From contig OY761535.1 in assembly GCA_963664525.1 (NCBI GenBank), positions 2,703,314 to 2,767,313 on the forward strand: 64,000 bases of DNA. Reading direction: 5' to 3'. Made by a program: the position numbers and the translations under genes. How positions within the stretch are numbered: the stretch's first letter is position 1; every line of letters starts with the position of its first letter. The DNA is from Arenicellales bacterium (GTDB taxonomy: Bacteria; Pseudomonadota; Gammaproteobacteria; Arenicellales; JAJDZL01). Of this stretch, positions 4,802 to 60,776 are shown in pieces. A model generated the notes under the pieces. The model did not search any database and had not been told where the DNA came from. It saw only the letters and a program-made list of their open reading frames with translations.

Positions 4802-4805
4802 CGAC

Positions 4806-6662: not shown

Positions 6663-6961
6663 CTCTGCCTCGATTTAGCCTTAACTGCATTCGTTGTGTC
6701 CGAAGCCTGCTAACAGTACCTGAATTGAACATTTGATAGTGAGAATCATAAAATATTTTTGAATCGAGATTGATCTCCTAAAGATCATTTTGCCTACCAA
6801 CAAAAGGTAAGCTAACTTTCGTTCAAGTTCAAAATTTCCATTGAAAGCTAAGGGAAGTTACGCCACTTGATGAATTTGTTCAAAATATAATTAGGTGTGT
6901 TAAAAAATCTTGCGAATACTCGTTTCAGACACATCGAAATTGAAGTAAAAGGGACATAACT

Positions 6962-8029
6962 TTGAAATCATTTCGTTTTATTGATCTTTTTGCAGGGATC
7001 GGTGGTTTCAGAAAGGGATTTGAGACTGTTGGTGGACAGTGTGTATTCACTTCCGAATGGGACAAATTCTCGATAGATACTTATAGATCGAACAATGATT
7101 GCGACGACCATGTCGTCGTGGGTGATATTCAGTCTGTACATGCGGATGAAATCCCCGAACACGATGTGTTACTCGCAGGATTTCCTTGCCAGCCATTTTC
7201 ACTTGCTGGTGTATCGAAAAAAAACGCATTGAACCAGTATCACGGATTCAATTGCGCCACCCAAGGCACATTATTTTTCGATATTGCGCGTATTCTTGAT
7301 GTTCAAAGGCCGAAAGCTTTTCTGTTAGAAAACGTCAAGAATCTAGTCAGTCACAATCAGGGCAAAACATTTGACGTGATTCGTCGTACGTTGGAAATCG
7401 AGTTGGACTACAAGATAAATTTCCGCATAATTGATGCAAAAGGATTCGTACCTCAACACCGGGAGCGTATCTTTATTGTCGGTTTCAGAGATTCAAATGG
7501 CTTCACATTTGATGACTTTGAAATACCTCACGACTCCCCGCAACTAAAATCAATTTTACACCCGGAAAACGGTACTGAGGAAGCGGAAGAACCATTTACA
7601 TATGGGTGGTCGGCAAGAGTTGCAGACAAATACACGCTTTCTGACCGCCTCTGGCAATATTTACGAGACTATGCGAAAAAACATCGAGCAAAAGGTAATG
7701 GCTTTGGATATGGCCTAGTTGGAAAATACGATGTTTCACGCACGCTATCAGCCCGTTATTTCAAGGACGGTTCGGAAATACTGATAAAACAGAAAGGTAA
7801 AAAAAATCCCAGAAGATTGACTCCTCGCGAATGCGCTCGATTGATGGGGTTTGACAGTTCAGTAGAGCGCAAATTCACAATCCCTGTTTCAGATGCACAA
7901 GCATACAAACAATTCGGGAACGCGGTAGTTGTACCAGTTGTCGAAGCTGTGGCTCGGCACATGCGCCCTTGGATAATTGATGAAAATACCGATTATCGGC
8001 CGAGCAGTATCACTAATCACCGTGTCTGA
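6962..8029 (+). CDS. dcm: DNA (cytosine-5)-methyltransferase
   Basis: All the C5-MTase motifs are present: I 'FAGIGGF', IV 'GFPCQPFS', VI 'ENVKNL', VIII '[10 protein letters not shown]', IX '[14 protein letters not shown]', X 'QFGNAVVVP'. TTG start at 6962, preceded by AAGGGA. Confidence 0.9.
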
Positions 8030-8477
8030 CATAGTCGATGCTCAAACTCGTAGCCGGATGATGTCCGGCATTCGAAGCAAAAATACCAAGCCTGAATTGA
8101 TAATTCGGCAAGGGCTACACAGACTGGGATTTCGCTTCAGATTGCATTCAACCCAATTGCCGGGGAAACCTGATTTGATTCTTCCGCGTTATCGGGTCGC
8201 AATTTTTGTCAACGGTTGCTTTTGGCATGGCCATGGTTGCCACCTATTCAGATACCCTTCAACGCGCAAAGACTTTTGGCAAACTAAGATTCAACAGAAC
8301 GCGAAACGCGATCAGGAAGTTTCAACTAATTTGCTTAAAGCAGGCTGGAGGCAACTTGTAGTCTGGGAATGTGCCCTCAGGGGAAGAAAAAAACTTAACT
8401 TGGATGAATTATTGAAACATGCTGAAATATGGATCAAGGGAAGCGACAAATTTTTGGAGATCGCAGGTTCGGAATGA
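7980..8477 (+). CDS. vsr: Very-short-patch repair endonuclease (T:G mismatch)
   Basis: Close to E. coli Vsr over its whole length ('[17 protein letters not shown]', '[10 protein letters not shown]', '[13 protein letters not shown]', '[12 protein letters not shown]'). The start is either ATG 7980 or GTG 8022. Both overlap the dcm 3' end (stop 8027-8029), as in the E. coli dcm-vsr pair. Confidence 0.9.
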
Positions 8478-43223: not shown

Positions 43224-45692
<2,469 letters not shown>

Positions 45693-45796
45693 TTAATCAA
45701 ATCTTTCCCGCATCATCTGACGGTGCGAATTTGAGTGTTCGGAGTGGAAGTTTTTGGCCGGTGTGTTTGGCCGATGTCAAAAGGAATCAAGCGATG

Positions 45797-47011
45797 TTAA
45801 CCGTCCTTTAACAACATCACCAGAAAACTTGTTGACGTGTCTTCGGGGAACTTGACCTGGCAAGCTGCTTGTGAGTCGCGCAGATACAAATCGACACTTT
45901 CGCACTCCGGCATCGCCTCTAGCGCATCCAGGAGATAGCGGTAATTGACCTGGAACTTGTGCTTTCCGGCATTTTCTAACACGTTCATTGAGTGTTCGAC
46001 TTTCTTTTGGACAATATCTGCGCGCATAACCAACTGTGTGTCATCAACATCGACGCTTGCGGCGATGCGGTTTTTGTTGACATCCTTTTGCGACATGCTC
46101 AAAATACCAACGAGCTTCAAGCCGTCGGACAACTCGCTGCGGTCTGCTCGAAAGGCAAGTTCCAAGTTACCGGGCACCGCTGCTCGCCAATCAGGAAATG
46201 CACCTTCCAATAATTTCGAAGTAAACGAATAACTCGGCGTAGACACCTGGATATGCGTGCCTTTGAAACGCAGCGTCACTCTGGAAGCCAGCGTTCCAAG
46301 TACTTTACTCAGTTCCAGTGCGGTTTTGCGGGGCAGTACCGCACGGTGTCGAAGATCGCTGTCGCCAATTTCCGAGTCCAGCATGGATTCACTGATCGCC
46401 ATGCGATGTCCATCGGTCGTTACCGCACGCACGACATTATTGGTGATCTCGAACAAGGTGGCGTTCAGATACATGCGAGGCTCATTTTGCCCCATGGCGT
46501 GTTCGGTGCGCTTGAGAATATTGCGCAGCGCAAATCGATCCATATCAAACTGCAAGTCCCAGTCCCCTTCACCGACACGCAGATAAGGAAAATCTTCGGC
46601 ATCAAGCAGTGTTTCAGTCAATGCATTCCTGTGTTGTTCGATGGATGTACCGGGATGCGTTGCATCACCATTGGCAACTGGAACATGTTCAGCTGCCTTC
46701 GTATCCACATTTTCGACAACCAACTCCGTGTCGTTCTGACTAAAGTCAAGGCGACTGCCATTGGGTTGACGTCTGCAGTATTCCAGCAGCATCTGTGCGG
46801 AACAGACGAACTTACCGCTGTCTGAGACCTCAACGTCATCAATCTGCTCACTGGCTTCAATGTCGATATTCGATCCCCACAGGCGAATACCACCAGGCGT
46901 CGATTCAATCAATATCTGCGCCAAAATCGGAATAGTCGGCCCCGTATCAATGACAGAAGTAACACGACTCAATGGGTCGATCAGTGCATCTTTTTCAATC
47001 AGGAATCGCAT
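45797..47011 (-). CDS. dnaN: DNA polymerase III beta sliding clamp (404 aa, with an insertion)
   Basis: Collinear with E. coli DnaN ('PTIPILAQILIE', 'RMYLNATLFE', 'VTTDGHRMA', 'FTSKLLEGAFPDW', 'FQVNYRYLLDAL'). There is extra sequence around 'VDTKAAEHVPVANGDATHPGTSIEQHRNALTETLL'. Confidence 0.9.
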   Translation of the reverse strand: MRFLIEKDALIDPLSRVTSVIDTGPTIPILAQILIESTPGGIRLWGSNIDIEASEQIDDVEVSDSGKFVCSAQMLLEYCRRQPNGSRLDFSQNDTELVVENVDTKAAEHVPVANGDATHPGTSIEQHRNALTETLLDAEDFPYLRVGEGDWDLQFDMDRFALRNILKRTEHAMGQNEPRMYLNATLFEITNNVVRAVTTDGHRMAISESMLDSEIGDSDLRHRAVLPRKTALELSKVLGTLASRVTLRFKGTHIQVSTPSYSFTSKLLEGAFPDWRAAVPGNLELAFRADRSELSDGLKLVGILSMSQKDVNKNRIAASVDVDDTQLVMRADIVQKKVEHSMNVLENAGKHKFQVNYRYLLDALEAMPECESVDLYLRDSQAACQVKFPEDTSTSFLVMLLKDG

Positions 47012-47304
47012 TGCAATCTAACAAGATATATACATATTTATTCTATTTTTATTGTTTGGTCTGTGAAGAACGTAAACAACCCCAAAAATAGAAAGTGGAT
47101 CAATGGGATAAATCGCCAATTTCTGTGAACTATTCAGTGAGGCGAAAGTGGAAGAGTGTAAATGAATTTCAACTTGAAATGAACTCAACAGTAGTTGTTC
47201 ACACTGACTTACAAATTATACACTCACTGCCTGTAATTTATGCATATTCCAGTGTTGTTTCGGCAACTTGGCACTGATGATGTCAGTTGTGTCTGCCTCG
47301 ATGC
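47012..47304. promoter_or_regulatory. 293-bp AT-rich dnaA-dnaN spacer with degenerate DnaA-box-like 9-mers
   Basis: AT-rich tract at 47021-47057 (ACAAGATATATACATATTTATTCTATTTTTATTG). 9-mers one mismatch from TTWTNCACA/TGTGNAWAA: TGTGAAGAA (47062-47070) and TTGTTCACA (47195-47203). Weaker ones: AGTGGATCA (47094-47102) and TGTGAACTA (47124-47132). Confidence 0.3.
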
Positions 47305-48675
47305 TTATTGAGTGAACTGATCTTGCAGGTTCTGGTATTCATCCCGAAAGCGTTTGTCTTTCTTTATTCGTTCTGCTACTCTTTTTTTTGCATAAAGCAC
47401 CGTGACGTGATCTTTCCCGCCAAACGCTTTCCCGATATCAGGCAGGCTCTTGCTGGTAAATTCGCGTGCTAAACTCATGGCAACCTGGCGGGGCAATACA
47501 ATGTCGGCACGTCTGTTTTTCGACAGCATATCCTTGAGACGGATCCCGTAAAAGTGCGATACGGTCTGTTGAATGAATTCGATCGTAATCGGCCGTTTGT
47601 TAAATTCCAAAAGATCAGACAATTGCTCTTTGACAAATCCGATTGAAATGTCCCTGCCCGTCAGGCGATGGCCGGCCGACAGCGTGTTCAGTGCCCCTTC
47701 AAGTTCCCTGACGCTCGCCGTGATATTCTCGGCCAGGTAGCGCGACACTTCCGGTTTGAGGTGTATTGCGCGTAATTTTGCCTTGGTTTCCAAAATGGCA
47801 ACACGCGTTTCGAGCTCTGGTGGCCAGATTCTCACCGTCAGCCCCTGACTGAGTCGGGATTTGATACGATCTTCGACCTGTTCGATTTCCTTGGGAAACT
47901 TATCGCTGGTGATAATGATCTGTTTGCCACCTTCGAGCAGCAAATTGAAAGTCTGCAAGAATTCTGCCTGTGATGCCTCTTTGCCTGAAAAAAGATGAAT
48001 ATCGTCGATCAGCAGGGCATCAAGCTGCCGGTAAGCATTCTTCATTCGCTCGGCAACTTCGTTGTTCCGATTCAACATGGCATTGATGATGTGCTGCACG
48101 AAATTTTGTGCATTCACATAACCGATTTTAGAATCCGGGTCTTTTGCTTTGAGCGCGTGTGCGGCCGCCTGCATCAGATGAGTTTTACCAATGCCGACAT
48201 CACCATAGATAAATAACGGGTTATACTCTCGTTTCCCAGGCTCTGTGCTGGCTGCTTCGGCTGTAAATCTCGCAAGTTTGTTCGATTCGCCGACGATGTG
48301 CTGTTCAAAAGTAAATATGGGGTTCAGCGGGCTGAAACCAAACTGGAGCTTACCATCGCGTTTAGCGGAATGATTCTTCTGGATTTGGGATTTGGTTTGC
48401 TTGCCTGAACCTTTCTTCTGATTTGCGCCACCGATGGATTCCATCTCGATTTTGACTGCGACACGGTCGCCCTGGTAAGCGCAGGCCAGTTCCGTAATTC
48501 GATCCAGCCATTTTGATTCAACGCCGGTTTTCACATAGGAATTGGGAGCCCGAAGTACCAATGTACCGTCTTCGGAGGCAACACTCAGTGTCCGCAACCA
48601 GGCATAGTGGTCTTTTTCACTGACCTCCAGTTCCAGTTGTCTTAAGACAGTTTCCCACAAAATCGATGGCACCAT
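47305..48675 (-). CDS. dnaA: Chromosomal replication initiator DnaA
   Basis: AAA+ Walker A 'GDVGIGKTHL', 'LLIDDIHLFSGKEASQ', 'RSRLSQGL'. DNA-binding domain IV 'IVLPRQVAMSLAREFT..SLPDIGKAFGGKDHVTVLYA'. Confidence 0.95.
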   Translation of the reverse strand: MVPSILWETVLRQLELEVSEKDHYAWLRTLSVASEDGTLVLRAPNSYVKTGVESKWLDRITELACAYQGDRVAVKIEMESIGGANQKKGSGKQTKSQIQKNHSAKRDGKLQFGFSPLNPIFTFEQHIVGESNKLARFTAEAASTEPGKREYNPLFIYGDVGIGKTHLMQAAAHALKAKDPDSKIGYVNAQNFVQHIINAMLNRNNEVAERMKNAYRQLDALLIDDIHLFSGKEASQAEFLQTFNLLLEGGKQIIITSDKFPKEIEQVEDRIKSRLSQGLTVRIWPPELETRVAILETKAKLRAIHLKPEVSRYLAENITASVRELEGALNTLSAGHRLTGRDISIGFVKEQLSDLLEFNKRPITIEFIQQTVSHFYGIRLKDMLSKNRRADIVLPRQVAMSLAREFTSKSLPDIGKAFGGKDHVTVLYAKKRVAERIKKDKRFRDEYQNLQDQFTQ

Positions 48676-48901
48676 CGCAATACGGCTCGACTACTCCCAC
48701 TGCATGACGTCGGGTTCAATGACTGAACACCGAGTAAAGGAAAAAATTCAACGTTTGCGCTTTTGAGCAAGTTTGCGTATTGACAGGCTTGCTTAACGGC
48801 AAATTTGCACACACTTCGTTACTATGCTATCTTACAACAACGGGCAGTGGTCAAGAGCAAAGATTTAACTGAATTTTCACTCCAATTGTCATTTTTGCGT
48901 T

Positions 48902-48910
48902 TGCTATAAT
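48902..48910 (+). promoter_or_regulatory. Candidate extended -10 promoter element (TGcTATAAT) for rpmH
   Basis: TGCTATAAT read at 48902-48910, ~105 nt upstream of the rpmH ATG. No well-spaced -35 was found (TTGTCA at 48886-48891 is only 13 nt away). Confidence 0.3.
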
Positions 48911-48938
48911 TTTCCATTCTGTTTTGCGCATGACTGAT

Positions 48939-48966
48939 GCCGGCGATGCCGGCTTCCCGTTTTTGG
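48939..48966 (+). terminator. Terminator-like hairpin in the rpmH leader (GCCGGC-gat-GCCGGC + T-tract)
   Basis: A tandem 9-mer GATGCCGGC x2 (48936-48953) forms a 6-bp GC stem with a 3-nt loop, followed by TTCCCGTTTTTGG. Confidence 0.3.
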
Positions 48967-49015
48967 TCGGTCGTCAGGCATTTCACAAATTCACTTTTTC
49001 TGGTTTATTTATCTT

Positions 49016-49150
49016 ATGAAACGCACCTTTCAGCCAAGTAATTTGAAACGCAAACGTAAGCACGGGTTCCGGGCCCGCATGCGTACTCGAGGCGGGCGAG
49101 CAGTGATCAACTCACGCAGAGCCAAGGGCCGTTCGCGTTTAAGTGCATGA
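49016..49150 (+). CDS. rpmH: 50S ribosomal protein L34
   Basis: Not in the ORF track because it is under 60 aa. Translated by hand: [44 protein letters not shown], the canonical L34 sequence. It lies upstream of rnpA. Confidence 0.95.
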
Positions 49151-49511
49151 CGCTCACAAGGCAACCACAGATTTTCAACTGCCAAAACGCGCGCGACTGA
49201 AGGACTTATCCGAGTTTCGGGCAGTTTTCAGTCAACACAAAAGAGTTTCAAACCGTTATTTCCGCATACTGGTCCGATACAGGCAAGATCAGCCAGATTC
49301 GCGGATCGGAATCATTGTTTCACGTCGTGTATCGCGCAAGGCCGTTAATCGCAACCGGATCAAACGTCAAGTGCGTGAAGCGTACCGGCTGAATCGACCA
49401 GCCTTGAAAAAGAAAGATTTGGTTGTCATTGCGCATCGCAGCTGCGAAACAGCAAACAATAGCGAACTTTATGCCAACATGGTCAAACTGCTCCGTCAAC
49501 TGAAAACATGA
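49143..49511 (+). CDS. rnpA: Ribonuclease P protein component
   Basis: '[29 protein letters not shown]' (RNR motif). Position rpmH-rnpA-yidD. GTG start overlaps the rpmH end. Confidence 0.9.
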
Positions 49512-49735
49512 AACGCCTGTTGATCATTGCTGTCAAGATTTATCGTTATGCGATCAGCCCGTTCATGGCACCGTGTTGTCGATTTCACCCGAGCTGTTCC
49601 ACTTATGCGCTCGAGGCGATTGAGCACTATGGAGCGATCAAAGGCAGTTGGTACTCGATCCGCCGAATCGGACGTTGTCACCCATGGAATCCAGGCGGAT
49701 ACGATCCCGTTCCAGGTACGACGGAGCGTAACTGA
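49508..49735 (+). CDS. yidD: Membrane protein insertion efficiency factor YidD
   Basis: '[56 protein letters not shown]'. Confidence 0.95.
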
Positions 49736-51447
49736 TGGATATTCGGCGCGCAATTTTGTCCATATCGCTTGGCTTGATTTTGCTGCTCATCTGGCAGGCA
49801 TGGCTGGATTACGAAAACACCAAGGACGCTGTACAGCTTTTGAGCGATTCGTCGACCGAATCCGATTTACCGCAAACGCCTGTTGCCCAGCCTCAACCTG
49901 AAGCATCATCTGTACCTCAAGCCCCCGATACCCCGGCACCACCGGCAGCGCCGAGCGAAGCTGACGCACCTTTGCCCACGACAGCACAATCAGGACAGTC
50001 AGGCTCTTTCATTAGCGTCGAAACCGATTTGCTGAAACTGAGGATTGATACAGTCGGTGGTCAGATCAGGGATACGCGCCTGATCCAGTATCCAGTTGAG
50101 GTCGAAATGCCCGACGTTCCGTTCCGGTTGCTGAAAGATATGCCGCCGGATGTCCTGGTTGCGCAGTCCGGTCTGGTTGGCAACGATTTTGAGTTTCCAA
50201 ATCATAAAACCCAGTTCAGCGCCGATTCAGACTCCTACACCTTGAGTGCCACAGACCAGTCGCTGTCGATACCAATTTACTGGACTTCCCCGGAAGGTAT
50301 TGAATATACGAAGATATTTACCTTCCAAAGGGACAGCTACCTGATTGACGTTGAACACCGGGTCAACAATCAAAGCGGTCGGATGTGGCAAGGATACCAG
50401 TACGGTCAATTCCTGGCAACGGAACAGCAGGTTGAAGGTGAAGGGTTTTTGTTTTTGCGCGCCTTGCCAAGTTACCAGGGTGCTGCGGTATACACACCGC
50501 AGAACAAGTACGACAAGATTGACTTTAAGGAAATTCGCAACGAAAAGCCTGCTTTTGAAACCGAATCCGGATGGGTGGCGATGCTGCAGCATTATTTTGT
50601 GACTGCCTGGCTGCCGGAGGACAATTCACCGTACCGATTCTATACCCGACCGCTGGACAGCGCCGGGGGCCAGACACGCTATCAGATCGGCTATGTCACC
50701 TTAAGTCCGAAATCGGTCGCCAATGGTTCTTTGGATTCGTTGCATACCCGCCTGTATGTCGGACCAAAGGAACAGGTGAGAATCAAAGAACCTGCCGAAG
50801 GCTTGATTTTGACCGTGGACTATGGTTGGCTGACCCCGGTTTCTTCACCGCTTTTTTGGGTTCTCGAAAAGATTTACAGCGTCATACAGAACTGGGGCTG
50901 GTCCATCATCATTTTGACCTTGATGGTAAAGATTGTGTTTTACCCCTTGTCCGCCGCCAGTTACAAGTCGATGGGCAAGATGAAAAAACTGCAGCCACGC
51001 CTAAAAACGCTGAAAGAGCGCTACGGTGATGACAAGCAGAAGCTCAATCAGGAAATGATGCAGATTTACAAAAAAGAGAAAATCAATCCCCTGGGCGGCT
51101 GTTTGCCGATTCTGATCCAGATACCGGTATTCATTGCGCTTTACTGGGTATTGCTGGAAAGCGTTGAGTTGCGTCAGGCACCGTTTATTTTCTGGCTGAC
51201 CGATCTTTCACGCTCAGATCCATATTTCGTGTTGCCGATTCTCATGGGCGCTTCCATGTTTGCACAGCAGTTTCTGAATCCGACTCCTTTGGATGCGATG
51301 CAAAAAAACATCATGATGAGTTTGCCGATTGTTTTCACCATATTCTTTTTGTGGTTCCCCTCCGGACTGGTGCTTTACTGGCTGGTTAATAACATCCTTT
51401 CAATTGCACAGCAGTGGTATATCACCCGCAAACTGCTGACCGAATAA
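49735..51447 (+). CDS. yidC: Membrane protein insertase YidC
   Basis: N-terminal TM, a large periplasmic domain, and the conserved C-terminal core 'GWSIIILTLMVKIVFYPLS', 'GCLPILIQIPVFIALYWVL', 'FPSGLVLYWLVNNILSIAQQ'. Confidence 0.95.
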   Translation: MDIRRAILSISLGLILLLIWQAWLDYENTKDAVQLLSDSSTESDLPQTPVAQPQPEASSVPQAPDTPAPPAAPSEADAPLPTTAQSGQSGSFISVETDLLKLRIDTVGGQIRDTRLIQYPVEVEMPDVPFRLLKDMPPDVLVAQSGLVGNDFEFPNHKTQFSADSDSYTLSATDQSLSIPIYWTSPEGIEYTKIFTFQRDSYLIDVEHRVNNQSGRMWQGYQYGQFLATEQQVEGEGFLFLRALPSYQGAAVYTPQNKYDKIDFKEIRNEKPAFETESGWVAMLQHYFVTAWLPEDNSPYRFYTRPLDSAGGQTRYQIGYVTLSPKSVANGSLDSLHTRLYVGPKEQVRIKEPAEGLILTVDYGWLTPVSSPLFWVLEKIYSVIQNWGWSIIILTLMVKIVFYPLSAASYKSMGKMKKLQPRLKTLKERYGDDKQKLNQEMMQIYKKEKINPLGGCLPILIQIPVFIALYWVLLESVELRQAPFIFWLTDLSRSDPYFVLPILMGASMFAQQFLNPTPLDAMQKNIMMSLPIVFTIFFLWFPSGLVLYWLVNNILSIAQQWYITRKLLTE

Positions 51448-52796
51448 ATGGCGGTAACGTCGATACGATCGCTGCCATAGCGACACCCGCCGGAATGGGC
51501 GGAATTGGCATTGTTCGCCTTTCCGGTCCCGAATCAACACCAATCATTCAACAGGTGGCAGGTACACTGCCCAAGGCGCGAAGCGCTCAGTACCTGGAGT
51601 TTACAGCTACAGATGGCAGTGTCATCGATCGAGGAATTGCCCTTTACTTTCCGGCACCTCATTCATACACCGGGGAAGATGTTGTCGAATTTCAATGTCA
51701 TGGTGGCCCGGTTGTACTCAATATGCTGTTGGCTCGTATCCTTGATCTCGGTGCCCGCACTGCCGAGCCGGGTGAATTCACCCGACGTGCGTTCCTTAAC
51801 GGCAAAATGGACCTGATGCAGGCTGAAGCGGTTTGCGATTTGATCAACAGCAAGACCGAAGCTGCGGCTCGCGGTGCTGTTCGTTCATTAAGCGGAGACT
51901 TTTCCATCCAGGTGAATGAAATTCGCGAGCAGCTTGTACGCTTGCGGATGTACGTTGAAGCAGCCATCGATTTTCCCGAAGAAGAAATCGATTTCCTTGA
52001 CAATACGCAAATTGATGAATCTGTTGACAAAATTCACGCTCGAATCACCAAACTTTTGGACGATGCAGCGCGCGGACAAATATTGCGAGAAGGCCTGGAA
52101 GTTGCGATCACCGGTCTGCCCAATGCCGGTAAATCCAGTCTGCTCAACCAGCTTGCGGGTCATCAACGCTCGATCGTTACTCCCCAGGCTGGTACCACAC
52201 GAGATACCATTGACCTGCTTGTCGACTTTGACGGTCTTGCAGTTTGTCTGACTGATACAGCGGGTCTTCGTAGCAGTGATGACCTGGTTGAAAAGCAAGG
52301 AATCGATCGTGCCTGGAAAATTGCCCGCGACGCTGACCTGGTGCTTTATCTGATCGACGTTACCCGCGCAGCTGTTGATATGGACCGGTACAATCTATCG
52401 CAGCTCGATCATTCTAAAGTACTGATCGTGTGGAACAAGATAGATCTTGGCGATTTGCCCAGCGACACCTCCCTACCCGATGAAGTCAAGCAGATATCTG
52501 TATCGGCCAAAACGGCGATCGGTGTGGATTCCCTGCGCCAGTATATTCGCCAGTTTGTCGGCTTCACAGTCAGCGATGAAGGCCAGTTTTTAGCCCGTCG
52601 CCGACACCTCGAAGCGCTTGAAAATGCACTGAAATTTGTAGAGCAGGCACAAACGGTATTAAAACGGCATCGTTCGGGTGAATTGATGGCCCAGGATTTG
52701 CGCGATGCAATGGATGAACTTGGCAAACTGGTTGGCACACTGTCTGCAGATGAACTGCTGGGTGAAATATTTGCAAATTTTTGCATTGGTAAATAG
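51414..52796 (+). CDS. mnmE: tRNA modification GTPase MnmE
   Basis: 'DTIAAIATPAGMGGIGIVRLSG', G-domain 'GLPNAGKSSLLN', 'DTAGLR', 'NKIDL', C-terminal 'FCIGK'. The only in-frame start is GTG 51414, which overlaps the yidC 3' end by 34 nt. Confidence 0.92.
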   Translation: MVYHPQTADRINGGNVDTIAAIATPAGMGGIGIVRLSGPESTPIIQQVAGTLPKARSAQYLEFTATDGSVIDRGIALYFPAPHSYTGEDVVEFQCHGGPVVLNMLLARILDLGARTAEPGEFTRRAFLNGKMDLMQAEAVCDLINSKTEAAARGAVRSLSGDFSIQVNEIREQLVRLRMYVEAAIDFPEEEIDFLDNTQIDESVDKIHARITKLLDDAARGQILREGLEVAITGLPNAGKSSLLNQLAGHQRSIVTPQAGTTRDTIDLLVDFDGLAVCLTDTAGLRSSDDLVEKQGIDRAWKIARDADLVLYLIDVTRAAVDMDRYNLSQLDHSKVLIVWNKIDLGDLPSDTSLPDEVKQISVSAKTAIGVDSLRQYIRQFVGFTVSDEGQFLARRRHLEALENALKFVEQAQTVLKRHRSGELMAQDLRDAMDELGKLVGTLSADELLGEIFANFCIGK

Positions 52797-52860
52797 CGAC
52801 ACCGGCTTGAATCCGAAGTAAACTATTCGTAATTCACACTAAAAGCCGAATTAACTCACC

Positions 52861-53787
52861 ATGCGAAAAAATCAATCCGAACGGGTACTGATTCAGATAA
52901 GCATCGTCTTGACAGTCATTGCTGCAGTTGTTATATGGCAGCACGACTATTTGATCAATCTGTACATTCACAATCAGTTAACCAATGTCGGCTTGATTGT
53001 CAATGGCGCCATTTTGGCACTGTTTGGGCTAGGTATGCTGCGTATGGTGCGTCTTTTCTGGTTTTATCGGGAACAGGAAAATGCGCTGGATGTTTTTTCT
53101 GCGGTCATTGAGTCAGGGGATATGGACCGTTTGGAAGACGCAGTACCGCCACAGTCCATCATTGGCCAGCGCTATCGCACGATTGTCAGTTTTTTTAGCT
53201 CACGTACGGAAATTAACCACAATGCGCTCGCTGCAACGCTGCTCGCCCGCGAGTCGAGCAAGATAAGTTTTGTTAAATTTATCAACAATATCCTGATATT
53301 GGCCGGTGTGTTTGGAACGATAGTTTCTTTGACGGTGGCATTGCTGGGGGCTTCAACCGCGATTTCCGAGACAGGAAGTCTGCGTGGCATTGATATCGTG
53401 ATTCACGGTATGTCGACCGCGCTTTCAACCACCATGACTGCGATCGTGGCCTATTTTCTGTTTGGCTATTTTTACTTAAAGTTGATGGACACCCAGTCTT
53501 ATGTTCTAGGACGCGTTGAACACGCAACTGCAACTGAACTGATGCCTCGATACCAGGCTGCTACCCGGTCGCCGGAGCAGGCTTTAAGCGAACTTTTAAC
53601 CGGTACGGTTGAAACCATTGAGAAGTTTAATGATTTTATTCAGCAAATCCAGACCATTGGTGTTTCCCAAAGCACGATGATGGAAAATTTTGAGCGACTG
53701 ACCGAACAGAATATGCACATGCTGAGCGACATTCGCAGTATTTTGCGAGCGGGCTTCAGGCTGCGGGAAGACTCTGAGCACAATTAA
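52861..53787 (+). CDS. MotA/TolQ/ExbB-family proton-channel-like membrane protein (308 aa)
   Basis: Four hydrophobic segments. The last two carry 'ILAGVFGTIVSLTVALLG' and 'GMSTALSTTMTAIVAYFLFGYFY', resembling the MotA/ExbB/TolQ channel signature. An ~85-aa helical cytoplasmic tail follows. Confidence 0.65.
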   Translation: MRKNQSERVLIQISIVLTVIAAVVIWQHDYLINLYIHNQLTNVGLIVNGAILALFGLGMLRMVRLFWFYREQENALDVFSAVIESGDMDRLEDAVPPQSIIGQRYRTIVSFFSSRTEINHNALAATLLARESSKISFVKFINNILILAGVFGTIVSLTVALLGASTAISETGSLRGIDIVIHGMSTALSTTMTAIVAYFLFGYFYLKLMDTQSYVLGRVEHATATELMPRYQAATRSPEQALSELLTGTVETIEKFNDFIQQIQTIGVSQSTMMENFERLTEQNMHMLSDIRSILRAGFRLREDSEHN

Positions 53788-53806
53788 CACTGTTGGGTAA
53801 ATCACG

Positions 53807-56218
53807 GTGACAATGAGCACAGGCGGTTTTATTGACCTGCGCGTTCACCGCGCCACGGAGAGCAGTCACTCCGACGACAGCATCTGGCCATCTTTTACTG
53901 ACATCATGATGGTTGTCGTCATGATTTTCCTCATGTCATCCGTCATTTTCATGCTACGCAATGTGCAGCTCGACGAAGATATTGAACGAGCCACGGTTGC
54001 CGAGAGCATGGCTGTTCAGGAAACAGAGTCCCTACGCGAACGCACGGCATATCTTGCTGAAATTATTGCCCAAACAAAAAAACAACTGTCACTGACCGAG
54101 CTGCAACGACAGGAACTGAAGACATTGTCGGAAGTGCGAGGCGTACGCATTTCGGAACTTGAAGTCGAAACCGCGCAGCTTTTTCAAACCCAACAGCAAC
54201 TGAATGTTGAAGTGACAGGATTGAATCAGCGCCTTGAGCAAATCAGGGGCGAGCGAAATTCATTGACTGAGCGCATCAGTTCGATGAACACGACCATCGA
54301 GCAGTTGAACGAATTAATCGACACCAAGTCCGCTGAGTATGACACTTTGCATGCAAACTTCCAGCAAAAGCAAAACACGTTACGCCTGGTCGAGGAACGT
54401 TTGGACAGCCGTAACCGCGACCTTGAAAACTTAAGCGCAAGCCTGGCCCAGCTTGAAGACCTTGAAGCAAGCCAACGTGGGCAAATTGCTACACTTGAAC
54501 AAATTAAGGCTGAACGCGAACTTCAGATTCAAAACCTTGTCGCAGAATCTGGCCTTAAGGATGAACAAATTGCAAGGCTGACTGAGACTCGTCGCCACTT
54601 GAGTGCGAGTTTGACTGCTCGTTTGGGTGAACTTGAGGTCCTGCAGCAAACCTATCGAGAAAGTCTCGCTTCGATTGAAAGTTTGCAGGCTCAATTGCAA
54701 GAACGAAGTGCCCAATTGCAAGATCAGACGCTGGCCAGCGCGCAGCTGCAAGGCGTTGTGGAACAGCTTGAATCGGTAAAGACTGAGCAGGGTGAGACCA
54801 TCGAGTTTCAGGTGGAGACCCAGGCCCAGTTGAGAGAGGAACTTTCCCGACGAGTCGCACAGGTGTCGGAACTGGAGCGACAATTGCTTGCCAAATCAGA
54901 CCAGTTCACACAATTAACGGCGCGTGAAGCGAGCTTAATGGCTGATTTTGAAACGTTATCCGCAAGCCATTTCGAAAATACACAAGTCATTGAGAATCAA
55001 GAACGTCAAATACAAACACTGCGCGATCAAATTGCACAGCAATTGGCAAATCTTGATGATGCTCAGCGCGCGATTGAATCACAAGCGACACAACTGACTG
55101 AAGTTAGAGAACAACAGGTCGCCACCCTCAATGAGCTTGAGCAAGAACGACGGCTCAACGAGCAGCTTAAGCAGCAACAAAGCGATCAAATTGCTTCAAT
55201 GACTGAGCAACTGTCAGTCAATGAACAAACCGCTGAGCAGCAAACCCAGCAGATCGAATCATTAAAGGTCCGATATGCTGAGCGCCTGGCCGAGTTGAAT
55301 CGAGTCGAGGCAGACTTCAAGGAACGCAAACTTGAAGTTACTCGTTTACAGGAACAACTGACATCAATGATTGAGCAACTCGATTCGCTTCAGACCGCCT
55401 TGAGCGTGCGCGATACACAGATTAGCACTCTCAATGTGCAAATTGGCGCACTTGATGATGAAGTCGATTGGCTCAGTGCTTCAGAAAAAGAACTAAAAGA
55501 ACAAATAATTCAATTGCTTAATGAAAAAAGCGAACATCAGGACGAAATTGCGCAGCAGCGCCAGGAACTGCAGGGGCTTGAAGACGAGATCCGTCGTGTC
55601 ACCATTGAGAACGATGATTTTAGGCGCGAACTGGAATACAGCAGACAATTGCAAGCAGACCGCCAGCAACAGCTTGTAACCCTTCAGACCGTCATGCAGC
55701 AGTTAAGTCAAGACCTCAAGGCTCGTGACGAACGACTCGAGTCCCTGCGATCTGAAAACGACAGACTGCTCAAAACAGAAATTCGCGGTGATCGCCAAAT
55801 CACCCAATTGCGCCAGGCCTATCAGGAAAGACTGAAAGAACTCAATAACTTACAGCAAGCCCTCGCTTCAAGAAGCGGCGAAGTTGAACAGCTTCAAAGC
55901 GAACTTGTTGAATTTGAGCATGAGCGTGAATTAATGTTGCGGCCAGCCCGAAGCCCCGCCAATCGATTTGTTGTCGAGGTCTTTTTCAGTAAATCTGATT
56001 CTGGCGATGCAATCTACCAGTATCGACTGCCAGGACAATCAGCGACAAATCGGGTTTCACGAGATGAACTTGAGAATTTGTTGGAACGACTGAAAAACGA
56101 ACGCTCCGAAGGACTTTATACCAAGATCATATTTCCTGACGAAGATCGGTTGTCGTTTTCGGAAGCCTGGGATTTTACGCAGCACATTCACTCGAATTAC
56201 GACTACTACAGCCGATAA
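53807..56218 (+). CDS. MotB/ExbD/TolR-like single-pass protein with ~640-aa coiled coil and ExbD/TolR-like C-terminal domain (803 aa)
   Basis: N-terminal 'SIWPSFTDIMMVVVMIFLM' is a TM helix with a conserved-position Asp (codon 53900-53902), as in stator B/D subunits. Residues ~55-700 are Q/E/L/R-rich and heptad-like. The last ~100 aa ('RFVVEVFFSKSDSGDAIYQYRL..VSRDELENLLERLKNE..LYTKIIFPDEDRLSFSEAWDFTQHI') fit the ExbD/TolR periplasmic-domain pattern. No OmpA-like motif was seen. Confidence 0.55.
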   Translation: MTMSTGGFIDLRVHRATESSHSDDSIWPSFTDIMMVVVMIFLMSSVIFMLRNVQLDEDIERATVAESMAVQETESLRERTAYLAEIIAQTKKQLSLTELQRQELKTLSEVRGVRISELEVETAQLFQTQQQLNVEVTGLNQRLEQIRGERNSLTERISSMNTTIEQLNELIDTKSAEYDTLHANFQQKQNTLRLVEERLDSRNRDLENLSASLAQLEDLEASQRGQIATLEQIKAERELQIQNLVAESGLKDEQIARLTETRRHLSASLTARLGELEVLQQTYRESLASIESLQAQLQERSAQLQDQTLASAQLQGVVEQLESVKTEQGETIEFQVETQAQLREELSRRVAQVSELERQLLAKSDQFTQLTAREASLMADFETLSASHFENTQVIENQERQIQTLRDQIAQQLANLDDAQRAIESQATQLTEVREQQVATLNELEQERRLNEQLKQQQSDQIASMTEQLSVNEQTAEQQTQQIESLKVRYAERLAELNRVEADFKERKLEVTRLQEQLTSMIEQLDSLQTALSVRDTQISTLNVQIGALDDEVDWLSASEKELKEQIIQLLNEKSEHQDEIAQQRQELQGLEDEIRRVTIENDDFRRELEYSRQLQADRQQQLVTLQTVMQQLSQDLKARDERLESLRSENDRLLKTEIRGDRQITQLRQAYQERLKELNNLQQALASRSGEVEQLQSELVEFEHERELMLRPARSPANRFVVEVFFSKSDSGDAIYQYRLPGQSATNRVSRDELENLLERLKNERSEGLYTKIIFPDEDRLSFSEAWDFTQHIHSNYDYYSR

Positions 56219-56409
56219 CGAAACCGTGTTCATCAGCGGCGGATAAATCCATGCGCAGTGCCGGGTCTGTGTGACCAACGTCGGATAACAGACTCAACAA
56301 AGCTTTTGGATGGGTCATATCCATGTTCGCTCGTAGCCTGGCCTGGGCTTCGATACTCTACCCCAAGGTTTTTGCCCGTCACGGATGTTGATTTCGCATC
56401 GAATAGACA

Positions 56410-56438
56410 TTCAGAAGAATAAACAATATTCATATAAT
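56410..56438 (+). promoter_or_regulatory. Candidate sigma70 promoter for mnmG (TTCAGA-17 nt-TATAAT)
   Basis: -35 TTCAGA at 56410-56415, a 17-nt spacer, -10 TATAAT at 56433-56438. It lies 86 nt upstream of the mnmG ATG. Confidence 0.3.
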
Positions 56439-56523
56439 GGCGAGCGTCTTCACTTTTTGTTAACACCGTGTTCCAAAACACTTTTTTCGATTTCACATTT
56501 CAGCTTTTGAACGATTACAAGCC

Positions 56524-58419
56524 ATGCGCTCAGAAATGAATTACGATGTTATTGTCATCGGCGGTGGACATGCCGGTTCAGAGGCTGCGATGGCTGCCGC
56601 GCGAACAGGCAGTCGCACGTTACTGCTCACCCAAAACATCGAAACGATCGGACAAATGTCCTGTAACCCTGCCATCGGTGGGATCGGTAAAGGCCACATT
56701 GTCCGTGAAATCGATGCACTGGGCGGTTTAATGGCACATGCGACTGATCGAAGTGGAATTCAGTTTCGACGCTTGAATATTCGTAAGGGACCTGCCGTGC
56801 GTGCGACGCGGGCACAAACTGACCGTTCCTTTTATCGATCCGCTGTTCGACAAATGCTGGAACAGCAGGAAAACCTGACTTTTTTTCAGCAGGAAGTCGA
56901 AGACCTGTGGGTCGAGGGAGACCAGGTGCTTGGCGTCGTTACACGATTTGGCGTACGCATCATGGCGCCTTGCGTTGTATTGGCAACAGGTACTTTCTTG
57001 GGCGGTGTGCTGCACATTGGCTTAAAGAATCGAAGCGGTGGACGCGCGGGTGATGCACCGTCCAATCGGCTTGCAAGCCGTCTTCGGGAAATGATGTTCC
57101 ACGTGGAACGTTTGAAAACCGGTACACCGCCACGTATTGATGGCCGAACCCTAGACTATTCCAAGCTGATCGAGCAACCCGGCGACATTCCGACGCTTGT
57201 GTTTTCATTTCTAGGCTCGGTAAAGGATCATCCTCGACAAGTTTCCTGTCACATTGCCCGGACCAATGAAAAAACGCACGAAATTATCCTTAAACACCTT
57301 GATCAGTCGGCGATGTACGGCGGTACAATCGACTCGGTCGGCCCGCGTTACTGCCCATCGGTTGAAGACAAGGTGGTGCGATTCTCCGACCGTTCTTCTC
57401 ACCAGATTTTCGTTGAACCGGAAGGCTTGAACACTTCGGAGATTTATCCGAACGGTATCTCTACCAGTTTGCCATTTGAGGCGCAGTGCGATTTTGTACG
57501 CTCAATCGAGGGCTTTGAAAACGCGCAGATTACCCGCCCCGGCTATGCCATCGAGTATGATTTTTTCGATCCCCGTGATTTGCATCCGAGCCTGGAAACC
57601 AAATCGTTGAACGGTTTGTTTTTTGCAGGCCAAATCAATGGAACCACCGGTTATGAGGAAGCTGCGTGCCAAGGCTTGATCGCTGGCTTCAATGCTTCTC
57701 GACGCGTACAGCAGTTAGACTCGTGGTGGCCTCGACGAGATGAAGCCTACATTGGCGTACTGATTGATGATTTGGTGAGCAAAGGGGCCGATGAACCCTA
57801 CCGGATGTTCAGTTCGCGTGCTGAACACCGGCTACTGTTGCGCGAGGATAACGCGGATTTACGCTTGACAGAAAAAGGGCGTGAGCTTGGTTTGGTTTGC
57901 GAGCGACGCTGGAAGTCTTTTTGTGCCCGACGCGACGCCCTTCAGAAAGAACGTGCCCGACTTGAGGCAATCAAGATTACTCCGAACGCCGAAGTACGGG
58001 AAGTGTCAAGAAAAATAACAGGCCGACCAATCAGTCACGAAGCGACCCTGTTTGAGCTTTTGCGCGACCCGAATATTGATTACGATGCCGTCATGCAATT
58101 TACTCAAAGCGGCAACCCCGTGACCGACTGCGGTGTAAAAGAGCAGTTGGAAATCGAAGCGCATTATGCGGGCTATATCCAGCGGCAACAGTCTGCGGTC
58201 CAAAAGTCCTTGAAACTCGAAAATGTTTCGTTCCCAGACGCGATTGATTTTTCAGATATTCATGGTCTGTCGAACGAGGTCCGACAGAAATTGCAACGCC
58301 ATCGCCCCAAGACTTTGGGCTTGGCATCCAGAATTCCTGGTGTAACCCCTGCCGCAATCTCAGTGCTTGCAGTGCACCTGAAAAAACAATACCAAAAACA
58401 GGCCAAGCGAGTGGGGTAG
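56524..58419 (+). CDS. mnmG: tRNA uridine 5-carboxymethylaminomethyl modification enzyme MnmG (GidA)
   Basis: '[16 protein letters not shown]', '[24 protein letters not shown]', '[12 protein letters not shown]', '[17 protein letters not shown]'. Confidence 0.95.
57095..57110. promoter_or_regulatory. parS centromere-like site (TGTTCCACGTGGAACG) inside mnmG
   Basis: The 14-bp core GTTCCACGTGGAAC is a perfect palindrome. It matches 15/16 positions of the Pseudomonas-type parS TGTTCCACGTGGAACA. It lies ~2 kb upstream of parAB. Confidence 0.65.
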
Positions 58420-58468
58420 TGCGCCACTTGATGTTCCGTCCAGCATTTCTTGTAGAACCCGGCGATCG

Positions 58469-59137
58469 ATGACGCCACGGTCAAGGCAGCAGATATACGG
58501 CGATGAATTACGCGCCAGGATGGCGAGTCGGATTCAAACTGCATCAAAAAGGATGATGGTCGATCTGCCAGACAAGCAGATCGAACGTGCGATCGCTTAT
58601 TCGGAGCTTTTGTTGAAGTGGAATCAAACGAGCAATCTTACAGCCATTCGTAACTTGGAAGATATTGTTGATAAACACATTTTGGATTGTTTGGCGATTG
58701 TGAACCATGTTCAGGGATCGAAAATCATTGACCTTGGCAGCGGTGCAGGGTTTCCGGGAATCGCATTGGCATTGGCCAGACCAGATTGGAAGGTCATGCT
58801 CGTCGATTCGAAGGCCAAGAAGATACAGTTTTTACGTCACGCGGTGGCCTGTCTGGGTTTCGTCAACGTTCAAGTTCTTCATCAGCGCATTCAGGACATC
58901 GCGACCGGGGAGTTATTTGATACTGCAGTGGCTCGAAGTCTGGGCTCGCTCAAAGCAATTGCTGATCTTGCATGGCCACTGATCGCATCGGATGGCCGCA
59001 TTATTGCGATGAAAGGTCAACTGCCTGTTGCCGAGATTGCAGCGCTTGAATCACCATGCCGTCTGACGGTTCGAAAATTAAACGTGCCTTTTCTCGACAG
59101 TGAGCGGCACTGCATCATTTTAAGATCTGTTTCCTAA
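58469..59137 (+). CDS. rsmG: 16S rRNA (guanine527-N7)-methyltransferase RsmG (GidB)
   Basis: 'LLLKWNQTSNLTAIR', SAM motif 'DLGSGAGFPGIALAL'. Position between mnmG and parA. The exact start is uncertain. Confidence 0.9.
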   Translation: MTPRSRQQIYGDELRARMASRIQTASKRMMVDLPDKQIERAIAYSELLLKWNQTSNLTAIRNLEDIVDKHILDCLAIVNHVQGSKIIDLGSGAGFPGIALALARPDWKVMLVDSKAKKIQFLRHAVACLGFVNVQVLHQRIQDIATGELFDTAVARSLGSLKAIADLAWPLIASDGRIIAMKGQLPVAEIAALESPCRLTVRKLNVPFLDSERHCIILRSVS

Positions 59138-59148
59138 GCGGAGGAATA

Positions 59149-59922
59149 TTGAAAAACTCTCGCATCGTTGCGGTTGCCAGTCAAAAGGGCGGCGTTGGTA
59201 AAACGACTTCGGTGATCAACATCGCAGCTGCACTGGCGCGGGCAAAGCGCAGGGTATTGTTGATTGACCTTGATTCTCAGGCCAATTTGACTTCCGGCGT
59301 CGGCATTGAACCGCTTCCCGGTCAGCGCGGCATTTACGAAGTACTGCTGGGGAATGCAACTTTGGATGAGGTGAGCGTTCACCTTGATGCGGGCTTTGAT
59401 GTTGTATCGGCCAACCGTAACCTGTCCGGTGTTCAGGTTGAGCTTTTGGATTTTGCGCGCCGGGAGTTTAAACTCAAGGACGCATTGAATAAGGTACGTA
59501 AGGAATATAATTGGATTTTGCTGGACTGTCCGCCTTCATTGAATATCGTCGTCATCAATGCACTGGTCGCCGCCGACAGCGTCATTGTACCGACACAGTG
59601 TGAGTATTTCGCATTGCAAGGACTCGTCGAACTGCTCGCGACCATCAAAAAAGTGCAGCGCAACTTCAATACTGAACTCAAATTGGGCGGTATACTTAGA
59701 ACGATGCACGACCGAAGAAATAAACTGAACAGGGAAGTTTCCGATCAACTGAAGGAGCATTTAGGCGCACAGGTGTATCACACGATCATTCCCAGAAACA
59801 TCCGCCTCGCGGAGGCACCAAGTCACGGGAAAAGTGCGCTCGAATACGATAAAAGATGTGCTGGAACAATGGCTTATATGGCTTTTACAGGTGAATTGCT
59901 AAACCAGGAATCTACGTTTTGA
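59149..59922 (+). CDS. parA: Chromosome partitioning ATPase ParA (Soj)
   Basis: Deviant Walker A 'SQKGGVGKTT', 'LIDLDSQAN', 'ILLDCPPSL'. TTG start. Confidence 0.92.
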   Translation: MKNSRIVAVASQKGGVGKTTSVINIAAALARAKRRVLLIDLDSQANLTSGVGIEPLPGQRGIYEVLLGNATLDEVSVHLDAGFDVVSANRNLSGVQVELLDFARREFKLKDALNKVRKEYNWILLDCPPSLNIVVINALVAADSVIVPTQCEYFALQGLVELLATIKKVQRNFNTELKLGGILRTMHDRRNKLNREVSDQLKEHLGAQVYHTIIPRNIRLAEAPSHGKSALEYDKRCAGTMAYMAFTGELLNQESTF

Positions 59923-60776
59923 GTCGCACAGAAAAATTAGGGCGTGGGCTGGATGCGTTATTGGGTTCCCTTGAACCGGACCCGGAGCAGTCCGGTCAAG
60001 ATCGCATTGAGATGATTGCGATCGAAAAACTCCGTCCTGGTCCATTTCAACCGCGCACTCAGTTCAGCGAAGAATCATTGCAAGAACTGGCCGATTCGAT
60101 CACCGCACATGGCATAATTCAGCCAATCGTGGCTCGTGAGGTCGATGGCGATACCTATGACATCATTACGGGCGAACGACGCTGGCGAGCGGCACAAATA
60201 GCGGCGCACCATGAGGTGCCTGTCATCGTACGGCTGCTGCCTGATCAGGAGGCCATGGCACTGGCGCTGATCGAAAATATCCAGCGTGAAGACTTAAACG
60301 TAACTGAAGTTGCCGGTCTGCTGAAGCGTTTGATTGACGAATTTGGGCTCACTCATGCTGAAATTGCCCAAAACGTGGGTCTGTCGCGTGCATCAGTGAC
60401 CAATATTCTCAGACTGCTCAATCTTGCTGAACCGGTGTTCAAGATGCTTGCACAAGGGGAAATAGAAAATGGGCACGCCAAAGCCTTGTTGGCATTGAGC
60501 GGGCAAGATCAAGTTGAAGCGGCTCGGCATGTGGTGACACACTCGCTTTCGGTTCGGCGGACCGAAGCACTGGTCAAAAACTGGTCAAAACGTGCCCAGG
60601 CAAATGATTCCCAGACACAGTCGACTCCCGACGCTGATATCGCTAATCTCGAGCGCCGACTGTGTGAAAAGCTAACAGCTAAGGTGACCATTCACGACCG
60701 AAACGGTAGTGGACATATTAGAATCAAATATCAGAATCTGGATGAACTCGAAGGCGTACTGCAACGCATCGGATAA
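59919..60776 (+). CDS. parB: Chromosome partitioning protein ParB (Spo0J)
   Basis: 'LRPGPFQPR', arginine patch 'ITGERRWRAA', HTH 'LTHAEIAQNVGLSRASVTN'. The start overlaps the parA stop. Confidence 0.92.
   Translation: MSRTEKLGRGLDALLGSLEPDPEQSGQDRIEMIAIEKLRPGPFQPRTQFSEESLQELADSITAHGIIQPIVAREVDGDTYDIITGERRWRAAQIAAHHEVPVIVRLLPDQEAMALALIENIQREDLNVTEVAGLLKRLIDEFGLTHAEIAQNVGLSRASVTNILRLLNLAEPVFKMLAQGEIENGHAKALLALSGQDQVEAARHVVTHSLSVRRTEALVKNWSKRAQANDSQTQSTPDADIANLERRLCEKLTAKVTIHDRNGSGHIRIKYQNLDELEGVLQRIG

Follow-up and report, generated by a model that had tools for sequence, protein, structure and literature searches.

A gene pair between mnmE and mnmG of an Arenicellales bacterium as a candidate member of a new family of MotAB/ZorAB-type membrane motor units with a long coiled coil on the B subunit

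The DNA analysed here (hereafter the window) is a stretch of 64,000 nucleotides from an Arenicellales bacterium (GenBank assembly GCA_963664525.1, contig OY761535.1, positions 2,703,314 to 2,767,313 of the forward strand, numbered below from its first letter), and its genes mnmE and mnmG are separated by a pair of genes that we refer to as A (52861..53787, + strand, ATG start, 308 aa) and B (53807..56218, + strand, GTG start, 803 aa, encoding a bitopic protein). We lean towards the view that A and B encode ion-driven membrane motor units of the MotAB/ZorAB type and make up a new family of these, inherited with the chromosome and having a housekeeping role in the envelope; such a housekeeping envelope function is the most likely role of the pair, not motility or phage defence. 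The pair would add to the known 5:2 ion-driven motors a family that has neither a curated model nor a literature, all of the evidence for it being computational. MotAB, ExbBD, TolQR, GldLM and ZorAB each convert ion flow into work in a manner of their own and, if our view is true, the present family would provide a further 5:2 architecture in which the long element is carried by the axle subunit and no separate transducer protein is needed. A previous sequence-only reading of this DNA had presented the pair as possibly an uncharacterised ion-powered motor; its observations are confirmed and its interpretation is partly supported. We found no curated family model for the pair and no published description of it, and our literature searches, which included a 2025 survey of MotAB relatives (PMC12505986), brought up no B subunit with a coiled coil.

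The relationship of B to known motors became visible at its N-terminus. Because full-length B is swamped in profile libraries by coiled-coil matches (SMC, Rad50, JetC and LmuB), the coil had to be removed for the ZorB signal to be seen, and a coil-free profile was built in which the N-terminal ~70 residues of 21 family members are joined to their C-terminal ~110 residues. Against the PDB, this profile matches chains of ZorB (8vvn_B, E-value (E) 7.5e-6; 8vvi_A, 2.8e-4; 8qyd_F, 0.014), ExbD being reached at 1.3, and it aligns Asp32 of B with D24 of ZorB, a residue whose mutation abolishes Zorya defence (PMC11890865). In the PADLOC defence library, coil-free window B matches ZorB2 (6.8e-8) and ZorB1 (2.2e-7), and the models ZorB1, ZorB2 and ZorB3 match 21/21 family members, while the NCBIfam counts are 20/21 for ZorB1 and 2/21 for ExbD (at 0.035). 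The Pfam family of ExbD/TolR (PF02472) has no match to window B at E<=10. Since the ZorB models recognise all 21 members and ExbD only two, we place the membrane module of B in the MotB/ZorB branch and not in ExbD/TolR. The predicted transmembrane helix spans residues 27-50 (53885..53956, + strand) and reads WPSFTDIMMVVVMIFLM..., with Asp32 encoded by GAC at 53900-53902; 200 of 201 family proteins show W-P-S-F-T-D-[IV]-M or a slight variation of it in which the Asp is kept, the motif search having failed in the remaining one. The helix had been described beforehand as MotB/ExbD-like, and of this description the Asp, which proves to be conserved, and the MotB half hold, while the ExbD half does not. 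Lysine and arginine residues flanking the helix number two on each side, and its orientation is not settled by charges. Upstream of the helix, B carries the motif G-F-I-D-L-R (residues 7-12, 53825..53842, + strand), which we infer to lie in the cytoplasm and in which F8 is invariant and D10, L11 and R12 are conserved in at least 90%; the first ~20 residues past the membrane (R-N-x-x-L...R-x-T..A-E) are conserved as well. A MotB-like N-terminal helix is also shared with the NCBIfam models PRK09039 and PRK09040 (matched by 17/21 members for PRK09039.1-1 and 20/21 for PRK09040), and full-length window B covers the first 169 positions of PRK09039.1-2, helix and coil, at E 7.6e-8. However, the scores are 17-33 bits against cutoffs of 194-388, and the PRK09039 models are named 'peptidoglycan-binding protein' by NCBI whereas none of that kind was recognised in B. 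To our knowledge, neither PRK09039 nor PRK09040, the latter named 'hypothetical protein', has been characterised.

Protein A appears to be a distant protein of the MotA/ExbB/TolQ/ZorA type, for which the sequence evidence is weak but consistent and the fold evidence, taken from a predicted model, is clearer. Pfam MotA_ExbB (PF01618) matches residues 127-210 with 20.1 bits (E 5.5e-4), below the gathering score of 22.9; matches to the same family at E<=0.01 are found in 22 of 24 A homologues (best 2.7e-5), and three A homologues carry a precomputed one. In the PADLOC library, ZorA models are the only matches of A at E<0.04, and 17 of the 24 members match them. Sequence searches of the PDB, whether with the A sequence alone, with a profile of its full-length family or with a profile of the core formed by the third and fourth transmembrane helices of A (TM3-TM4), returned only coiled-coil or chance matches, so the MotA/ExbB relationship rests on the Pfam and PADLOC profiles together with the fold. 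The AlphaFold2 model of A, built on 24 homologues, is all-helical with a mean predicted local distance difference test score (pLDDT) of 81. In a Foldseek search of the PDB with this model, ranks 1-41 are all ExbB, TolQ, ZorA or MotA chains, with E from 2e-3 to 0.16 (none at or below 0.001), a target-normalised template-modelling score (TM-score) of up to 0.66 and a Foldseek probability of 1.0 in most of the first 35 matches; MotA structures stand at ranks 38-47 and are weaker than ExbB and TolQ. These profiles and structural matches bear out the MotA/ExbB-like fold class that had been claimed for A, and the strings that had been quoted as signatures of the two proteins (LAGVFGTIVSL, GMSTALSTTMTAIVAYFLFGYFY and SIWPSFTDIMMVVVMIFLM) are all present in the translations.

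The predicted layout of A begins with TM1 (residues 13-33), a short periplasmic loop and TM2 (residues 44-66), encoded together at 52897..53058 (+ strand); the corresponding part of the model holds helices at residues 5-26, 28-37 and 42-85. Lysine and arginine together number three at the N-terminus, none in the short loop 27-43, one in the other short loop, eight in the loop 64-137 and ten in the tail, and by the positive-inside count this distribution fits an N-in, four-helix, MotA-like topology. The TM3-TM4 core (residues 138-206, 53272..53478, + strand) is the most conserved part of the family, in which it hardly changes: among the 24 homologues T153 (53317-53319) and T191 (53431-53433) are invariant, as are G152, which forms a G-T motif with T153, and the block HGMSTALSTT from H182 to T191. 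Threonines T145 and T178 of TolQ line the ion path around the Asp of TolR/ExbD and, in an hhalign comparison with E. coli TolQ (whose sequence was checked against the PDB), T153 falls on T145 and T191 on T178, at an E of 0.034 and a low probability that make this alignment indicative only. The C-terminal cytoplasmic tail (residues 207-308, 53479..53784, + strand) is predicted to be helical, one helix running from 174 to 304 in the model with a dip in pLDDT at residues 231-240, and it ends in the conserved I-L-R-x-G-F-R-L, of which L295, G298, F299 and R300 are invariant. Its length hardly varies, given that 119 of the best 120 A homologues fall within 296-328 aa, the last one reaching 346 aa. 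Similar short motifs are found at the C-terminus of A (G-F-R-L-R, residues 298-302, 53752-53766) and at the N-terminus of B (G-F-[VI]-D-L-R, residues 7-12); both are predicted to be cytoplasmic, and they may touch one another or bind a common partner.

The two genes are inherited as a unit. With 2922 homologues found for A and 2092 for the coil-free B profile, they are real genes and not chance open reading frames (ORFs). In a locus scan restricted to one genome per species, which yielded at least 488 loci and of which the best 80 were examined, a B homologue lies directly downstream of A in 80/80 loci, which answers the question, raised by the sequence-only reading, of whether the two genes are always paired; they overlap by 4 nt in 43 of these loci, and most of the others have a gap of 3-33 nt.

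Between its membrane helix and its end domain, B consists of a coiled-coil rod (residues 51-708, 53957..55930, + strand) of about 650-660 residues, that is ~98 nm if extended. No proline occurs between residues 28 and 713, and residues 51-708 are rich in Q, E and L and include only 12 glycines. The spectral power of the core hydrophobic residues (L, I, V, M, F) reaches 9.2 at a period of 3.5 and stays at or below 0.5 at the other periods tested; the heptad registers run over residues ~109-436 and then ~477-723, separated by a single +4 shift (stutter). The unbroken coil of ~640 residues announced by the sequence-only reading is therefore essentially right, at about 650 aa, proline-free and heptad-periodic. 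The length of this rod was surveyed as the distance from the Asp to the R-P-A-R motif of the end domain in 289 B family proteins, which yielded 63 different values, the smallest being 123 and the largest 1138 residues; of these values, 34 are 4 modulo 7, 13 are 1 modulo 7 and none is 3 modulo 7 (chi-square p about 1e-17, uncorrected for shared ancestry, each distinct length requiring at least one insertion or deletion). The main heptad class holds 250 of the 289 proteins; the 1 modulo 7 class corresponds to one extra stutter, and window B, at 680, belongs there. Since lengths are quantised by heptads, insertions and deletions keep the phase, and the rod is one continuous coiled coil that holds the membrane helix and the end domain in register. 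A coiled coil rises by 0.148 nm per residue and, using this value after subtraction of ~18 membrane residues, the commonest distances (193 and 207 residues) correspond to stalks some 26-28 nm long, which is roughly the width of a Gram-negative periplasm. Across the family the rod spans about 16-166 nm and B ranges from 258 to 1261 aa, the rod of window B measuring about 98 nm and that of the longest relative about 166 nm. No DNA tandem repeats were found in the coil region of B, and growth of the rod by recent tandem duplication was rejected on this ground.

The rod leads to a C-terminal α/β domain of ~95 aa (residues 709-803, 55931..56215, + strand), which opens near the R-P-A-R motif (55940-55951) and ends with Y-D-Y-Y. 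In the AlphaFold2 model of the last 124 residues of B, pLDDT is 88-98 over this domain (10-residue block means), and its elements follow the order β-β-β-α-β-α, a predicted order that is similar to that of TolR/ExbD. The domain had been read as ExbD/TolR-like, and this claim could not be upheld as stated, none of Pfam, hhalign, Foldseek and an exhaustive hidden Markov model (HMM) search giving a significant relationship. Foldseek found no significant match in the PDB (best E 0.08), TolR (5by4) coming only at rank 19 with E 0.48, a probability of 0.44 and a TM-score of 0.34/0.39; it returned no OmpA-like match and no significant one among viral models (BFVD). Pfam gave no match on 18 C-terminal domains, one of which reaches ExbD at E 0.056. 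In hhalign comparisons, with either TolR and ExbD of E. coli or a profile of 20 TolR and ExbD sequences as the target, the same collinear α-β-α stretch was aligned each time at E 0.23-0.72; with the profile, E was 0.23 (probability 0.3%) for the domain and 0.0015 (probability 16%) once the N-terminal part was included. Among 1.84 billion representative proteins, the exhaustive HMM search yielded 371 matches to the domain, 345 of them at E<=1e-10, and the match is C-terminal in all 150 proteins among the matches listed. As HMM, Pfam, Foldseek and hhalign searches give no significant relative outside, the domain constitutes a closed family of its own, for which a remote TolR-like origin is possible; no TolR/ExbD paralogue that could serve for comparison occurs in the window or in the examined loci. 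No OmpA-type domain was recognised on B, either by Pfam on window B, on the C-terminal domains alone or among the families listed for 18 short homologues, in agreement with what had been noted from the sequence, and Pfam MotB_plug is not among the families matched by at least three of these 18 homologues.

Taken together, these features allow a mechanism to be proposed. The complex is presumably A5:B2, a stoichiometry suggested by the homology of both subunits and by their strict gene pairing. Ions would pass between T153/T191 of TM3/TM4 of A and Asp32 of B, and their flow would make the A ring and the B dimer rotate against each other. The latter would leave the membrane as an unbroken parallel coiled coil, located in the periplasm by homology with the N-in ZorB and MotB, and its terminal domain would presumably bind a distal target in the envelope. 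In this way, B would unite in one polypeptide the axle (the role of TolR or MotB) and the long reach (the role of TolA), and the cytoplasmic tail of A, of fixed length, might be a second output. By analogy with known motors, B could be held fixed with the A tail as the output, as in Zorya and MotAB, or B itself could turn or pull, as in GldM. It is tempting to go one step further, although we regard what follows as speculative and rather doubtful, and to see in the pair a new class of 5:2 motor in which the B dimer itself is the output. As a continuous coiled-coil shaft, or as a cable under tension, 16-166 nm long and rigidly phased to the ion-binding helix, the dimer would transmit rotation or pull from the inner membrane and, by way of the new end domain, act on a distant target in the envelope. 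The envelope function so served would be peculiar to Gammaproteobacteria and Zetaproteobacteria that live by oxidising sulfur and iron, and to their symbiotic relatives, with the giant versions working along the membrane and not across the periplasm. The family offers a natural length series of about 120-1140 residues, always graded by heptads, on which the transmission of force or rotation by a coiled coil could be studied. A correct description would also mend the current annotation, given that its members go publicly by the names 'hypothetical protein', 'Chromosome partition protein Smc' and 'ATP synthase subunit B family protein'; the exact sequence of window B was found in no record.

How far the proposed motor resembles known ones depends on the part considered. 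With MotAB/PomAB, the pair shares the gene order, a four-helix N-in A subunit whose model matches MotA structures, and a B subunit whose N-terminal helix bears a conserved Asp near its cytoplasmic end; it differs in that A has a short cytoplasmic loop, of about 70 aa, without a recognisable torque-generating interface, and in that neither an OmpA-like domain nor flagellar genes nearby are present. The likeness to TolQ-TolR-TolA (or ExbB-ExbD-TonB) is a functional analogy, that of an inner-membrane motor with a long helical periplasmic element whose small globular end reaches the outer membrane, and it is joined by the fold of A, nearest to ExbB and TolQ, and by the two conserved channel threonines. 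Here, however, axle and reach lie in one polypeptide, the membrane helix of B belongs to the MotB/ZorB type, the likeness of the C-terminal domain to TolR/ExbD is not significant, and TolA, TolB, Pal or TonB genes do not adjoin the pair. The periplasmic part of GldM is made of globular domains and not of a coiled coil; the likeness to GldLM (PorLM) is thus conceptual only, namely a dimeric subunit that forms a long periplasmic shaft and carries the motor output to the outer membrane, and no GldL or GldM match appeared in the general Pfam, NCBIfam and Foldseek outputs, no comparison aimed at GldL/GldM having been made.

Several observations speak against an ion-driven motor with a periplasmic rod. 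The score of A stays under the Pfam gathering threshold (20.1 vs 22.9 bits), and its core profile found neither an ExbB nor a MotA chain in the PDB. The C-terminal domain of B is without a recognisable binding function. The heptad quantisation is evidence of the continuity of the coil only, not of torque transmission. Finally, the rod of the window (~98 nm) and those of its relatives (up to ~166 nm) are 3-6 times the width of the periplasm and show no obvious hinge; these over-long rods may lie along the membrane, or the inferred topology may be wrong.

Three other explanations deserve to be weighed. The one that survives best, while still unlikely in our opinion, is that of a passive tether or ruler of the envelope, in which a static A-B complex, comparable to Lpp, would link or space the envelope layers by its rod and end domain without any flow of ions. 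Such a device would suit a rod whose length is heptad-quantised and specific to lineages, whose commonest lengths match the width of the periplasm and whose end domain is terminal in all matches listed, but the membrane Asp kept in 200 of 201 proteins and the invariant threonines, G-T motif and HGMSTALSTT block of A are hard to explain in a pure anchor. Moreover, since a single transmembrane helix suffices for anchoring, the strictly coupled A gene would be superfluous. If the family were only such a static tether, or an offshoot of Zorya, its interest would be lower, though still real.

That the pair is a Zorya-like anti-phage sensor, a membrane module whose effectors are encoded elsewhere and whose B rod probes the envelope for phage damage, seems improbable to us, even if Zorya ZorAB (PDB 8VVN, 8VVI and 8QYD), a 5:2 anti-phage motor, provides the best profile matches of both A and B and is likewise a two-gene module, A then B, with a long helical extension on one subunit. 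The length of the rod also changes fast between related genomes, B measuring 624-1261 aa in Arenicellales loci whose A is 56-75% identical to window A, and a cluster of methylase, Vsr and helicase genes is found in the same window, ~45 kb off. In Zorya, however, the long tail is cytoplasmic and belongs to ZorA, where it reaches several hundred residues, whereas here the long coil is on B and the tail of A has ~100 aa. ZorB ends in a peptidoglycan-binding OmpA-type domain, which Zorya requires (PMC11890865), whereas B ends in a domain without recognised relatives. In addition, no ZorC, ZorD or ZorE gene or other defence gene was recognised beside the pair, by Pfam or by eye, in the 80 loci, and the pair occupies a conserved core locus, not a defence island, with vertical inheritance within the order, and no relatives of it were found in 2.9 million viral contigs or in 72,556 plasmids. 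These neighbourhoods and absences also led us to reject the possibility that it belongs to a mobile element or a defence island.

We give just as little credit to an inverted topology with a cytoplasmic rod, in which B would be a membrane-anchored filament or tether (of the chromosome, the pole or an organelle) and A its membrane partner: rods of 70-166 nm would suit the cytoplasm better than the periplasm, the flanking charges of the B helix leave its orientation unsettled and, in the genome of the window, the pair stands among origin-proximal genes, with dnaA, dnaN and gyrB on one side and parA and parB on the other, but the B helix and the segment that follows align with ZorB and MotB, in which the N-terminus faces the cytoplasm and the Asp sits at the cytoplasmic end of the helix, the charge count of A fits N-in, and most members of the family have short rods and are not near origin genes, neither mnmE nor mnmG being adjacent in 47 of the 80 loci.

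The genomic setting of the pair is consistent with the chromosomal inheritance that we propose for these candidate motor units. In the window, exactly two co-directional ORFs are listed at 52861-56218 on the + strand, separated by a spacer of 19 nt (53788..53806, + strand), and they lie between mnmE (51414..52796, + strand; NCBIfam MnmE 458 bits vs a cutoff of 380) and mnmG (56524..58419, + strand; MnmG 865 bits vs a cutoff of 525), exactly at the coordinates given by the sequence-only reading. The native base composition noticed there is likewise confirmed, the GC content being 0.456-0.494 over A and B and 0.50-0.53 in mnmE and mnmG, thus slightly lower in the pair but not foreign. As for the position between mnmE and mnmG, presented at first as one of the most conserved neighbourhoods of the chromosome, it is conserved for Arenicellales, across which the locus is kept, but not for the family: both genes flank the pair in 20 of the 80 loci, one of the two in 13 and neither in 47. 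Loci flanked by mnmE and mnmG come mainly from Arenicellales, the closest relatives of the window, with an identity of A of up to 75%, and this position is a feature of the lineage, not of the family.

According to the record titles of the 80 loci, most carriers are animal symbionts or chemolithoautotrophs that oxidise sulfur or iron, among them Arenicellales, Candidatus Thiodiazotropha, Sedimenticola, endosymbionts of tubeworms, clams and snails, SUP05/Thioglobus, Chromatiales and a Zetaproteobacterium; Acidiferrobacterales appear among the names of A homologues. The family comprises about 2000-2900 clusters at 90% identity, from free-living and symbiotic chemolithoautotrophs. Across lineages, no gene family was found to accompany the pair in the 80 loci, its neighbours being housekeeping genes unrelated to it. 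Flagellar, TonB and TolA genes were recognised neither in the window nor beside the pair in these loci, as had already been remarked for the adjoining genes of the window together with the lack of ZorC/D, and no TolB or Pal gene adjoins it. In Thiodiazotropha, Sedimenticola and the symbionts of tubeworms and clams, Pfam identified among the neighbours a MOFRL-type kinase, DUF455 and Slp lipoproteins, and others were read by eye as LpxH, a cyclophilin, TsaB and an RND pump. One or two genes for Slp-family outer-membrane lipoproteins stand on the same strand just downstream of B in 28 loci, within L021-L062 of our scan (Thiodiazotropha, tubeworm and clam symbionts; e.g., L032:10626-11144), and are absent at the Arenicellales locus; they could reflect lineage synteny or a real partner. 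In four loci (L020, L022, L024 and L078), B and mnmG are separated by genes of the other strand, which encode TgpA (a transglutaminase), an unassigned ORF of 306 aa and a MoxR AAA ATPase.

The origin-proximal block of the window extends over 43224-60776 and consists of gyrB-dnaN-dnaA on the - strand and rnpA-yidC-mnmE-A-B-mnmG-rsmG-parA-parB on the + strand. DnaA boxes are not enriched within the window (15 matches vs 13.8 expected), for which reason a replication origin in the spacer between B and mnmG was rejected. This spacer of 305 nt contains a promoter-like site at 56410-56438 (TTCAGA, 17 nt, TATAAT; 10/12 matches), which suggests that mnmG may have its own promoter, the scans of the locus for promoters and terminators giving site counts no better than in shuffled sequence; with the same qualification, no terminator-like site was found 3' of B. 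On the minus strand, several long ORFs, of up to 150 aa, lie antisense within the coil-coding part of B (54276-54990); in all likelihood they are not genes but a side effect of the repetitive codons for Q, E and L. At the other end of the window, ~45 kb from the pair, a cluster at 76-8477 resembles a restriction or defence island and comprises a helicase-like ORF with UvrD_C/ResIII matches (76-1356), a second helicase-like ORF of 1150 aa with a Helicase_C match (1349-4801), a C5 cytosine methylase (6962-8029) and a Vsr mismatch endonuclease (7977-8477) whose gene overlaps that of the methylase.

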